64,000 bases of DNA, taken from the NCBI GenBank assembly GCA_964016885.1, contig OZ024766.1, positions 21,638,001-21,702,000 of the forward strand. The letters run 5' to 3'. The notes under the pieces were generated by a model. The model made no database searches and was not told the origin of the DNA. It worked only from the letters and a program-made list of their open reading frames with translations. The stretch's first letter is position 1. The number at the start of each line of letters is the position of its first letter. Positions 6,190 through 33,100 of this stretch are shown here, piece by piece. The position numbers and the translations under genes were made by a program. This DNA is from Eledone cirrhosa (Eukaryota).

Positions 6190-9100
6190 CTGCAACAACA
6201 ACGACAACAACAACATTATAACAACAGCAACAACAACAACAAAATGGTGGGCAGATTTTAAGAGCGAAATCAACAGGAGAGTCACTCCAGGTAGAGCCCC
6301 TACTTCTCTGAATTGAGAGATCACAGCTCTGATACTATGGACATGTGGTTAGAATGTCTCAGGAAAGAATCACTGGAGAGTCACTCCAGGTAGAGCTGCT
6401 ACTTCTCTGAATTGAGAGACCACAGCTCTGATACTATGGACATGTGGTTAGAATGTCTCAGGAAAGAATCACTGGAGAGTCACTCCAGGTAGAGCTGCTA
6501 CTTCTCTGAATTGAGAGATCACAGCTCTGATACTATGGACATGTGGTTAGAATGTCTCAGGAAAGAATCACTGGAGAGTCACTCCAGGTAGAGCTGCTAC
6601 TTCTCTGAATTGAGAGACCACAGCTCTGATACTATGGACATGTGGTTAGAATGTCTCAGGAAAGAATCACTGGAGAGTCACTCCAGGTAGAGCTGCTACT
6701 TCTCTGAATTGAGAGATCACAGCTCTGATACTATGGACATGTGGTTAGAATGTCTCAGGAAAGAATCACTGGAGAGTCACTCCAGGTAGAGCTGCTACTT
6801 CTCTGAATTGAGAGACCACAGCTCTGATACTATGGACATGTGGTTAGAATGTCTCAGGAAAGAATCACTGGAGAGTCACTCCAGGTAGAGATGTTACTTC
6901 TCTGAATTGAGAGACCACAGCTCTGATACTGTGGACATGTGGTTAGAATGTCTCGGGTAAGAATCACTGGAGAGTCACTCCAGGTAGAGCTGCTACTTCT
7001 CTGAATTGAGAGATCACAGCTCTGATACTCTGTCGAAACCTGTCAAAGGGCAAAGGAGCTCCTAAGAGTCAATGGCCATCCAAAACCACCGGGAGAGATG
7101 ACCCCTTAGCCTTTGTCAAGGCAGAATTCTAGGAGAAGGAAAACTCTGATATAACACCGGCAACCCTGATGGTATCCAATGATGTTGACTTGTTATTCTT
7201 TTTGGTAAATATCATCTTGGTTAAGAGAGTGGGACTGGCTTTGTGCAGTGCCTTTGCTCACTATAAAAGCTTCACGGCACAGGCATTGCTTTATATCTGG
7301 AGATCTCTCTGCACTTGTCGTCACATGGTACCATGGGCCCAGCACTATGTGTCAATAATTGTCACAAGTGTAGTGTTTGTACCAGAGTTTTCAAGTCGCT
7401 GGCTGGACTAAAAAGTCACACTCGTTCAGCGCATCGGTAGGGGTTCTCCTACATGGATATAAAGTAGTGGCCGTACTCGAAAACGAGTTGGCAGCCACCA
7501 TGTATATATATATAGATGTATATATACATATATATAAAACCATATTTGTTTTATTATATATATTTCAAGGGCATCCAAGACAACATTGGTGCGCTTTCAT
7601 CAGATAAAATACAAAGTTTGTTTTATAAATAGAGATGTACCCATGAAAATCATACCTCATTGGTTGGAAACAGTTACCTGTTGAGTGCTCTAAATAAGTT
7701 ATATATATATACATATATATATATATATATATATGTAGTAGTAGCAGAAGTAGGGGGCTTACCTTTAAGGGGTTGGCTAACAACATGACCTGTGTGATGG
7801 CTGCTGGGGGTAATATTGGGTTGAAGGCGGGGAGATCTGTTGCTGAAGGGGGCTGGAGTTTGATTTTCATCATCTGTAGATAGAAAGATAGATAGACTGA
7901 CATAGTTATCCCAACAACACTAACTACCCCACCACCACCAACACTAACTACCCCACCACCACCAACAACACTATCACCCCACCACCACCAACACTAACTA
8001 CCCCACCACCACCAATACCACCACCACCACCACTACTTCAACCCCACCACCAGCAGTATTACCACGTACCTTGGGGACAGCAGCCTGAAACAGTAGATTC
8101 CGGACAGGGAGGCTGCCTTTGTTCACCACAGACGCCACGACCACCACCACCGCCATCACCACACCAACCCCACAACCACCACCAACACTACACCAACCCC
8201 ACCACCCCACAACCACCATCACCACTACACCACCACCACCATCACCACCACTACACCACCACCAACCCCACCACCATCACACCATCAACACTACTTCAAC
8301 CCCACTACACCACCACCAACACTACACCAACCCCACCACCATCACCACCACTACACCATCAACACTACTTCAACCCCACTACACCACCACCAACACTACA
8401 CCAACCCCACAACCACCACCACCAACCCCACCACCATCACCACCACTACACCACCACCAACACTACTTCAACCACACTACACCATCACCACCACTACACC
8501 ATCAACACTACTTCAACCACACCACCAACCCCACCACCAGCAGTATTACCACGTACCTTGGGGACAGCAGCCTGAAACAGTAGATTCCGGACAGGGAGGC
8601 TGCCATTGTTCGTCACCGACACCACCATCACCAACACGTCCTGTCGGGGTTTGTTCTTCGCAAAATGTATCACAATCTTGAGTCCGGCCTTGTCGTAGGC
8701 CTCAATGGAGGAGGTGCTGCCTGCAATGGAGAGAGGAGGTGTGTAGTGGTGTGGTGTAGTGGTGTGGTGGTAGTGGTGTAGTGGTGGTGTGGTGTGTAGT
8801 GGTGGTGTGTAGTGGTGTGGTGTAGTGGTGGTGTGGTGGTGTAGTGGTGGTGTGGTGTGGTGTAGTGGTGGTGTAGTGGTAGTGGTGGTGTGTAGTGTGG
8901 TGTAGAGTCTGGCCTTGTCGTAGGCCTCAATGGAGGAGGTGCTGCCTGCAATGGAGAGAGGAGGTGTGTAGTGGTGTGGTGTAGTGGTGGTGTGGTGGTG
9001 TAGTGGTGGTGTGGTGGTGTGTAGTGGTGGTGTGGTGGTGGTGTGGTGGTGTGGTGGTGTGTGGTGTAGAGTCTGGCCTTGTCGTAGGCCTCAATGGAGG

Positions 9101-30100: not shown

Positions 30101-33100
30101 TATATACACACACACACTATATATATATATACACACACACACTATATATATACACACACACTATATATACACACACACTATATATATACACACACACACT
30201 ATATATATATATATACACTATATATATACACACACACTATATATATACACACACACTATATATATACACACACACTATATATATACACACACTATATATA
30301 TATACACACACACTATATATATATATATATACACACACACTATATATATATACACACACACTATATATATATATACAGGCAGGCTGACATAGAAAGCAAC
30401 ACGTGTACATGTCCACAACAAGCGGCTGAGAGGAAATGTACTTATCAACATACACAGAGGGGTGGGCCGTGTACTGGAACTACTAATGCTATATACACAG
30501 TGTGTGTATATATACTGTGTATATACACTGTGTATGTATATATATATATATATATATATATATATATATATATATATATATATATATATATATATATACA
30601 CTGTGTATGTATATATATATATATATATTATATATATATACACAGTGTATATATATAAATATATATATTTATATATATATATATATATATTTATATATAT
30701 ACACTGTGTATATATATAAATATATATATATATATATTTATATATATACACTGTGTATATATATAAATATATATATATATATATTTATATATATACACTG
30801 TGTATATATATAAATATATATATATATATATATTTATTTATATACACTGTGTATGTATATATATATATATATATTTATATATATATACTGTGTATGTATA
30901 TATATATATATATTTATATATATATACTGTATGTATATATAAATATATATATATATATATATATTTAAATATATACCCTGTGTATGTATATATAAATATA
31001 TATATATCTATAAAAATATATACATACACAGTGTATATATATATAAATATATATATATATATATATATATATTTATATATATATACACTGTGTATGTATA
31101 TATAAATATATATATATATATATTTAAATATATACCCTGTGTATGTATATATAAATATATATATATACACTGTATGTATATATAAATATATATATATTTA
31201 TATATATACACTGTGTATGTATGTATATATAAATATATATATATTTATATATATACACTGTATGTATATATATATATATATATATATATATATATATATA
31301 TATATATACATATATATATATAAAAGTAGAAGAGGTATTTAATTTGTTGGAGTAAATATACAATGATATTTTCCACCAATTAAATATAACCTCTACACAC
31401 ATATATATATATATGTATGTTTAATAGTTTAAGTATATATATATATACATATACATACACATATATAAAACATCCGTATATATATACATACATATATATA
31501 AAACATCCATGTATATATATATATATATATATATTATTCAAAATGTTAACAAATGAAAAATATTCTCATAATCAAAATATATAGTTTATTATATACATTT
31601 CAAAGGCACTGTGTTGCTTTTTTCAGTACGTCCTCATCAGATAAAATATATGATTTGATAAATGACATACTGCTACTTTCTTGATTATACAATTCCAGTA
31701 TTGGCAGTGATTTATTTAATAAAGTAATATGTATAATAAAGTATATATATAATATAAAGTATATATATATATAATAAAGTATATATATAATAAAGTATAT
31801 ATAGTAAAGTATATATATAATAAAGTATATATATATAGTAAAGTATATATATAATAAAGTATATATATAATAAAGTATATATATATAATAAAGCATATAT
31901 ATAATAAAGTATATATATATAGTAAAGTATATATATATAGTAAAGTATATATAAAATAAAGTATATATATGTAATAAAGAAATATATATAATAAAGTATA
32001 TATATAATAAAGTGTATATATATAATAAAGAAATATATATAATAAAGTATATATATAAGAAAGTATATATATAAGAAAGTATATATATAATAAAGTATAT
32101 ATATATAATAAAGTATATATATATAATAAAGTATATATATAATAAAGTATATATATATATATTAAAGTAATATAGAATATAAAGTATATATATATAATAA
32201 AGTATATATATATATAATAAAGTAATATATAATAGTAAAGTATATATATAATAAAGTATATATATAATAAAGTATATATATAAGAAAGTATATATATATA
32301 ATGAAGAAATATATATAATAAAGTGTATATATATATATATATATATATATATATAATAAAGTATATATATATAATAAAGTGTATATATATAATAAAGAAA
32401 TATATATAATAAAGAAATATATATAAGAAAGTGTATATATATATATATATATATATATAATAAAGTATATATTTTGAATAATATTAAAAACTCCAGGAAA
32501 ACTTTTACTGTTGAGTGCTTCTAATCTATTGTAAAACTGTATTTGTTGAATAATCAATGAACCATAGTAATATTTGGTTTTATATATCTATATTGTTTGT
32601 GTCACCATGACCCTCCCAAAGTATAACAATATATATATATATATATATATATATATATATATATATATATATATATATATCGATATATATCTATATATAT
32701 ATGTATATATACATATATATATATATATACATATGTATATATATGTATATATACATATATATACATATATGTATATATATATATATATATACACATATAT
32801 ATGTGTATATATATGTGTATATATATATATATATATATATATATACATATATGTATATATATATATACATATATGTATATATATATATACATATATGTAT
32901 ATATATATATATACATATATAGATATATATATATAGATATATATATATACATACATATATATATATACATACATATATATATATATATATATATATATAT
33001 ACATACATATATATATATACATACATATATATATATATACATATATAGATATATATATATACATATATATATATATACATATATAGATATATATATATAC

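Follow-up and report, generated by a model that had tools for sequence, protein, structure and literature searches.

Canonical and minimal hammerhead ribozymes have been defined in work on Penelope-like elements (PLEs), where most hammerheads are described as single dispersed motifs of truncated elements that cleave poorly, as dimers, and where an extra base after A9 and a G10.1-C11.1 pair are the hallmarks of the minimal form (min-HHR) (PMC4209133). Tandem non-LTR (long terminal repeat) retrozymes have been described as well, including about 5,000 mussel copies without the usual loop nucleotides (PMC7229834), and retrozymes have been linked to PLE ends, with 42-44% of the Xenopus copies lying in introns, monomers being common and cleavage seen in one of nine Xenopus retrozyme dimers (bioRxiv 2026.07.22.740005). 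PLEs make up 6.83% of the O. vulgaris genome (PMC13282606 supplement, the accessible part of which does not mention ribozymes), and O. bimaculoides carries a Hydra-clade PLE with a 3′ hammerhead and a preference for (TA)n; its row, Hydra-1_oBim, is the only octopus hammerhead that we met in the literature (accessible text of the PMC8557442 supplement). Here we report three type I hammerhead motifs, named E1, E2 and E3, in the introns of a GGA gene of Eledone cirrhosa, within a 64,000-nt stretch of contig OZ024766.1 (assembly GCA_964016885.1, positions 21,638,001 to 21,702,000), hereafter the window. We consider it likely that they are dispersed copies of an abundant octopod repeat with a 3′ hammerhead, carried as passengers in the GGA introns.

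Three type I hammerhead motifs in the window

A descriptor scan of both strands recovered exactly three type I hammerhead cores, all on the minus strand, and matched no others; a first-pass annotation of this DNA had placed three such ribozymes, with AUA^ cleavage sites, at the positions given in Table 1, and the scan bears it out. In 100 shuffles that kept dinucleotides within 500-nt blocks, the type I descriptor gave a mean of 0.02 matches of any kind per shuffle and a short stem III in none of them; the three motifs are genuine and stand far above chance. The complete core CUGANGA...GAAA...UH is present in each copy, along with stems I, II and III, of which stem I is open. Stem II follows one plan in all three, 3 bp, then a pyrimidine mismatch, then a distal helix, and the 10.1:11.1 pair is A-U in E1 and E2 and G-U in E3, so that both the stem II plan and the departure from G-C at this pair are as previously read. 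Stem III consists of 2 bp and a tetraloop, its 8 bases being self-complementary (palindromic), and the G+C content of the copies is 0.23-0.26. Of the traits of the canonical metazoan type I hammerhead, E1-E3 show the helix I of about 6 bp and the short helix III (1-2 bp, capped by a palindromic loop of 2-4 nt), and they lack the canonical helix II (4 bp, conserved loop 2, G10.1-C11.1 closure).

Two other origins had to be considered, box C/D snoRNAs encoded in the introns and a chance likeness within AT-rich sequence. UGAUGA in the core looks like box C, all copies lie sense within introns, and their weak top Rfam matches include C/D snoRNAs (E 0.3-7). However, no box D CUGA lies at a usable distance (the offsets are 167, in another repeat; none; and 7), for which the snoRNA reading was rejected, and the full three-helix hammerhead topology was given by 0/100 shuffles. 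We accord practically no probability to either origin.

The three copies had been described as diverged from one another, which is true of E3 and less so of the other two: stem II identity is 23/31 between E1 and E2, and 14/32 and 16/33 in the comparisons that involve E3. E1 and E2 are thus close relatives, and E3 alone is strongly diverged, as a separate subfamily. In the three-way alignment 62 of 66 cells are paired (93.9%) and four of 22 pairs are changed on both sides, three of these in stem II, which agrees with the compensatory change proposed earlier, as does a C-G to U-A swap in a sequencing contig (below). This level of pairing and two-sided change was reached by 6/500 shuffles, and slid controls pair at 42-53%; given only three sequences, from which the structure itself was drawn, the covariation is suggestive of the structure. 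A covariance model built from E1-E3 found no fourth intact copy in the window: of its 86 matches at E up to 5, three were the training copies (91-117 bits) and the next-best scored 24.8 bits. Pattern scans outside the window gave 0 and then 1 match in metagenomes and 0 and 0 in viral sequences; the metagenome match (L001) was dropped as chance or unrelated, its stem II being broken and its score 22.7 bits.

A dispersed, high-copy family

Four of 24 listed public sequencing runs, a list with no RNA run in it, were aligned to positions 7400-7900, around E1, at 80% likeness, a setting that favours intact copies. In run X2, 4,996 of 17.1 million contigs aligned, and the summed depth, which is not a copy number, was 2e5-1e6 over the hammerhead vs 7-60 for the single contigs listed; over a neighbouring abundant repeat (7400-7497) it rose to 1.7e6. 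Single stem II variants in this run were carried by 113, 107 and 102 distinct contigs (counting ceiling 128). Run X5 gave two aligned contigs only, one on the neighbouring repeat and one on the hammerhead. Loose contig ends show that the family runs upstream into sequence resembling the 5′ bodies of E1 and E2, and contigs related to E1 in runs X2 and X9 likewise extend into similar upstream sequence. No aligned contig in the four runs spanned both element and exon, exon coverage being partial and confined to X6. E1-E3 belong to a high-copy dispersed octopod repeat family.

Sixteen letter-variant rows were listed, 14 over 7572-7637 and two in the neighbouring repeat. All 14 spare the core, stem III and proximal stem I. 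Some sit in loop 2 and stem II, others in the internal loop of stem I or in the flank upstream. The stem II variant A10.1 to G retains pairing as G-U, and one X5 contig has both halves of the C-G to U-A swap in stem II. These variants bear on whether the family could be catalytically dead, that is, a once-active ribozyme repeat amplified passively as DNA, the non-G-C 10.1:11.1 pair being a mark of lost function. The lack of G10.1-C11.1 in E1, E2 and E3, the lack of an Rfam hammerhead match, and the eight of nine Xenopus retrozyme dimers that showed no cleavage (bioRxiv 2026.07.22.740005) would agree with this. Yet the core is without listed variants while loop 2 varies, the stem II changes retain pairing, and natural hammerheads have been described even with a U-U mismatch at 10.1:11.1 (PMC3088659, PMC7229834), which leaves a dead family highly unlikely in our view.

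Element bodies and a probable fourth copy

Upstream of the hammerhead, E1 and E2 share a 5′ body with the AGCACTCAACA motif, which recurs at a third place together with the ATTCAACAA of E2 (Table 1). One 11-mer has three exact copies across the window, each of them on the minus strand; two lie upstream of E1 and E2, respectively, and the third is at 32519. Since this 11-mer is shared, 32470..32600 probably holds a fourth, decayed copy, which compared with E2 by BLAST is weak when taken alone (28 nt, E 0.6). The 5′ ends of the copies differ in length. Two further observations were made around E3. Plus strand 32451-32480 is 90% identical to the E3 3′ arm, so that the slippage array within 31716-32600 could also be an inverted 3′ end; downstream of E3, a hairpin at 31325-31400 on the minus strand resembles the 5′ start of the E2 element, a hint that the stretch from 32.6 to 28.5 kb is a decayed cluster split by microsatellite expansions.

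Table 1. Hammerhead motifs, element bodies, neighbouring repeat and GGA exons, numbered from the first letter of the window
Feature	Positions	Strand	Details
E1 type I hammerhead	7533..7627	-	CUGAUGA with C3 at 7603, GAAA at 7566; core 7603-7597 + 7566-7555; predicted AUA^ cleavage 7555/7554; proximal stem I 6 bp, then distal helices
E2 type I hammerhead	28505..28607	-	CUGAUGA with C3 at 28580, GAAA at 28542; core 28580-28574 + 28542-28531; predicted AUA^ cleavage 28531/28530; proximal stem I 8 bp, then distal helices; best-folding copy
E3 type I hammerhead, of a diverged subfamily	31571..31659	-	CUGAUGA with C3 at 31640, GAAA at 31601; core 31640-31634 + 31601-31590; predicted AUA^ cleavage 31590/31589; proximal stem I 5 bp, then distal helices; G10.1-U11.1; predicted monomer misfold
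E1 element 5′ body	7628..7700	-	AGCACTCAACA, a shared motif, at 7689; borders on a (TA)n tract at 7700
E2 element 5′ body	28608..28700	-	ATTCAACAA at 28677, AGCACTCAACA at 28642; start adjoins (TA)n tract
Probable fourth, decayed copy	32470..32600	-	same two motifs (ATTCAACAA, AGCACTCAACA) at 32551, 32519; slippage repeat in place of core
AT-rich repeat, ~760 nt	31716..32480	-	immediately upstream of E3; complementary to the strand with stem III, the cleavage site and the 3′ side of stem I
GGA coding exon 1	36883..36919	-	GT donor 36882; like N-terminus of Octopus GGA proteins P0001, P0002
GGA exon 2 (VHS domain)	26507..26667	-	Pfam VHS E 2.2e-12; PDB GGA3 E 2.3e-21
GGA penultimate exon (gamma-ear domain)	7763..7873	-	Pfam Alpha_adaptinC2 positions 53-82, E 3e-4; GT donor 7762
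GGA last coding exon	6100..6189	-	like C-terminus of P0002

Placement in the GGA gene

The GGA gene runs along the minus strand; its coding exon 1 starts at 36919, its stop lies at 6100, and it takes up 30,820 of the 64,000 nt. GT/AG sites flank its exons. Over 53 aa exon 2 matches two Octopus GGA proteins at 100% identity, against 83% or less for the other matches listed, which places the host among the octopods. E3 and E2 are both within intron 1 and E1 is within the last intron, 207 nt past its donor site, all three in sense orientation; mapping the exons thereby upholds the earlier statement that every copy is sense within a GGA intron. The predicted cleavage sites are 3,059 nt (E3-E2) and 20,976 nt (E2-E1) apart. 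Sense orientation in 3/3 copies is a 1-in-8 event at best, E2 and E3 sit in one cluster, and an unrelated short repeat also has five of its six in-gene copies on the same strand; for these reasons the sense placement is unremarkable.

Several GGA exon pieces recur locally. Exon ends with their splice sites are duplicated at 8721, 8946, 9110 and 9381, giving one 12-residue peptide four times, an exon piece encoding 13 residues is present twice (12074 and 12257), and an extra copy of the 3′ end of the gamma-ear exon lies at about 8060-8120. These exon-end duplications are potential alternative splice sites or assembly duplications.

Predicted folding and cleavage

By folding energies, which ignore tertiary contacts, the stem III pairing probability in a monomer is predicted at no more than 0.003. 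The active secondary fold is given at most 0.09 in E2 and about 0 in the other two copies; the monomers are thus predicted to cut poorly. Between strands, all 8 of 8 stem III bases pair in all six pairings of E1-E3, and without constraints two E2 strands fold together into a double hammerhead (-41.0 vs 2 x -17.5 kcal/mol). By sequence, E3 and E2 could pair as a heterodimer: stem III would have 8 bp, and the cross-paired stem I would have 8 bp plus another 5. The free cofold of E3 with E2 is only 1.0 kcal/mol more stable than the two monomers. Skeleton dimer energies, in which the distal helices are missing, played no part in ranking the dimers. The AT-rich repeat directly upstream of E3 adds a competitor. 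Perfect complements of the 14-nt cleavage-site strand of E1/E2 occur 25 times in the pre-mRNA, all within 31700-32500, and the predicted duplex of this repeat with the E3 site reaches -15.9 kcal/mol vs -3.1 for E3's own stem I 5′ strand, so that such an antisense repeat could mask the E3 site. The first-pass annotation had supposed that self-cleaving motifs were placed in GGA pre-mRNA; from these models, self-cleavage there is predicted to be weak.

The copies might have been co-opted to regulate GGA, in the manner of the conserved amniote intronic hammerheads, cleavage of the nascent RNA tuning splicing or mRNA level; for example, an E3+E2 dimer in cis could free a 3,059-nt piece of intron 1. 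All three intact copies of the window are indeed sense and inside this one gene, which fills less than half of the window, their cores are intact although stem II has diverged, the E3 and E2 strands could pair as described above, and an engineered intronic hammerhead lowers zebrafish mRNA up to 20-fold (PMC11856399). However, the family is high-copy, so the intact cores would reflect descent from active parents, and the orientation of the copies is no more telling than that of the unrelated repeat. The low predicted active fold of all three copies, the small gain of the free E3+E2 cofold and the upstream repeat that is predicted to outcompete E3's own stem I for the site also argue against co-option, which we judge decidedly improbable. 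A more far-reaching proposal is an undescribed and very abundant octopod family with its own architecture (elongated helix II with a mismatch, no G-C closure) whose intronic sense copies could pair with one another in cis by way of their palindromic stem III: E3 and E2 would excise a 3,059-nt GGA intron 1 RNA with ligatable ends, the antisense array upstream of E3, derived from the decayed neighbouring copy, would be a host silencer, and in many octopus genes such ribozyme pairs and decoys would influence what becomes of the pre-mRNA and the output of circular RNAs. This proposal is improbable; if it were true, pairs of repeat-borne ribozymes would provide a way to cleave introns and to make large circular RNAs.

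In the reading that we favour, E1-E3 are passenger copies of a dispersed repeat whose 3′ portion, some 150-200 nt long, carries the type I hammerhead. The copies most likely represent either the ends of a 5′-truncated Penelope-like retroelement or single monomers of a non-autonomous derivative of the retrozyme type, and would have inserted into (TA)n tracts or close to them. By analogy with metazoan type I hammerheads, the ribozyme would serve the element's own RNA through dimer-dependent cleavage. The solo copies in the long GGA introns would be passengers, splicing usually outrunning cleavage, because stem III is predicted to be too weak in the monomer, partners are kilobases apart and AU-rich intron sequence would compete for the site, and because the upstream repeat is predicted to bind the E3 site more strongly than E3's own stem I does. 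The presence of hammerheads in the GGA introns is most likely incidental and not a dedicated control device.

The carrier element and points that weigh against a passenger repeat

The first-pass annotation had proposed a hammerhead-bearing retroelement family of the Penelope-like or retrozyme kind. A multi-copy family with a palindromic, dimer-type stem III was found; the Penelope-like or retrozyme carrier was not, there being neither a reverse transcriptase (RT) or endonuclease remnant nor tandem units in the window. Because the window holds no PLE open reading frame (ORF) and no tandem array, the carrier type was left without assignment. High copy number, low G+C and the lack of an ORF are retrozyme-type traits of the family, and truncated Penelope-like 3′ ends or retrozyme monomers fit best. 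On the minus strand at 33346-33420, a 60-nt unique island in (TA)n reads as a 20-residue peptide (at 33410) that may loosely resemble the start of a PLE endonuclease. Neither this peptide nor four further upstream frames had a Pfam match.

Alternatively, the carrier could be an element resembling a short interspersed nuclear element (SINE), with its own promoter followed by a hammerhead as in the Schistosoma Sm-alpha type, mobilised by a long interspersed nuclear element (LINE) instead of a Penelope-like one. The short shared 5′ body, the 3′ ribozyme and the lack of an ORF would suit it, a promoter plus hammerhead architecture has been described (PMC6765202), and O. vulgaris has abundant, active SINEs and LINEs (PMC13282606). 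But no promoter was recognised in the copies, for which no promoter test was made, their 5′ ends differ in length as with 5′ truncation, and PLE-related elements have been described with a palindromic stem III of the dimer type and with (TA)n flanks (PMC4209133, PMC8557442). We find a SINE-like carrier unlikely.

Several observations weigh against the reading of E1-E3 as passenger copies of an abundant hammerhead repeat. An Rfam search, which the first-pass annotation had suggested as a check, ran contrary to it: no Rfam hammerhead model matched any of the three copies at E up to 10 in local scans, and in the whole-window scan no hammerhead was among the best 150 of 630 matches, which were dominated by AT-repeat microRNA models. 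No RT or endonuclease Pfam family was present in the five upstream frames (0/5) or 18 ORFs (0/18) examined within the window, and no array of 150-450-bp units was among the Tandem Repeats Finder (TRF) arrays listed for it. (TA)n tracts lie 0-40 nt from both ends in 3/3 copies, and with 345 such tracts across the 64 kb this proximity is weak evidence. As to the contigs, summed depth does not translate into copies and the 80% likeness is biased to intact ones, the AT-rich 3′ half may draw low-complexity matches, and one listed contig has its 3′ core replaced. The unconstrained homodimers of E1 and E3 did not fold as double hammerheads, and the low activity of monomers is itself a prediction in which tertiary contacts are ignored. 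Two comparisons with described elements point the same way: E1-E3 are without the extra base after A9 and without the G10.1-C11.1 pair of the PLE min-HHR (PMC4209133), and the Hydra-1_oBim hammerhead row differs from them in core, stem II and stem III (accessible part of the PMC8557442 supplement).

Other repeats of the window

Upstream of GGA, short palindromic elements resembling miniature inverted-repeat transposable elements (MITEs) are present in several copies and both orientations (39710-39930, 43114-43266, 43434-43817). Related 48-52-bp minisatellites, at 14157-14672, 18900-19413, 21449-22031, 24911-26399, 45032-45260 and 48357-49687, appear to grow out of the tail of a short dispersed repeat, and a near-perfect inverted repeat at 39589-39677 is formed by the 5′ end of a short dispersed repeat. 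At 49700-55800, ORF fragments suggest a zinc-finger gene in which Ser, Gln and Ala form long homopolymeric tracts; the scanned frames had no Pfam match.

Comparison with known systems

In mode of action the motifs would resemble canonical dimer-type metazoan type I hammerheads. With the type I hammerheads of metazoan retrozymes (Cervera and de la Pena 2020, PMC7229834; Mytilus families, axolotl HHR_Amex2) they share the type I topology, a helix I of about 6 bp with a distal helix, a 2-bp helix III with palindromic tetraloop and low G+C; thousands of copies are described there and the family is high-copy here, and the mussel Mytilus families also lack the usual loop 1-loop 2 nucleotides. However, those retrozymes form two or more head-to-tail units of 150-450 bp, each with a hammerhead, and are expressed as small circular RNAs, whereas the sites here are 3,059 and 20,976 nt apart, and helix II is here extended by the pyrimidine mismatch and distal helix.

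With the PLE pseudo-LTR hammerheads (Cervera and de la Pena 2014, PMC4209133) the family shares copies that are single and dispersed and that sit at a short body's 3′ end, and with PLE hammerheads more widely, Hydra-1_Obim included (Craig et al. 2021, PMC8557442), a long helix II, a palindromic helix III, AU-rich flanks and nearby (TA)n; Hydra-1_Obim also comes from the same host group. PLEs differ in having an RT and GIY-YIG ORF upstream, whereas the window has none of this RT or endonuclease; truncated copies would lack the ORF. None of five motifs (0/5) was found in the Hydra supplement (accessible part of PMC8557442), in whose text line breaks and cut runs can hide matches. The amniote intronic hammerheads of RECK and C10orf118 (PMC3088659) have in common with E1-E3 a motif in a host-gene intron, but they are isolated and conserved across mammals, whereas E1-E3 are members of a high-copy repeat.

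We found no description of this octopod hammerhead family in the literature, some supplements of which may show a similar motif. If E1-E3 are passengers as we propose, they would add to the ribozyme and transposon catalogues, to which they would be useful, an abundant octopod hammerhead family missed by Rfam and with an unusual helix II, and would provide a natural system for host tolerance of many sense intronic ribozymes, with no GGA-specific mechanism implied. The motif is set apart from the named hammerhead families by its helix II and missing G10.1-C11.1 pair, by its departure from the min-HHR and by its lack of tandem organisation in the window, and because of these features we do not file it under any of them; next to the retrozyme and PLE hammerheads it is apparently an undescribed, abundant octopod family, known in kind but variant in its helix II.

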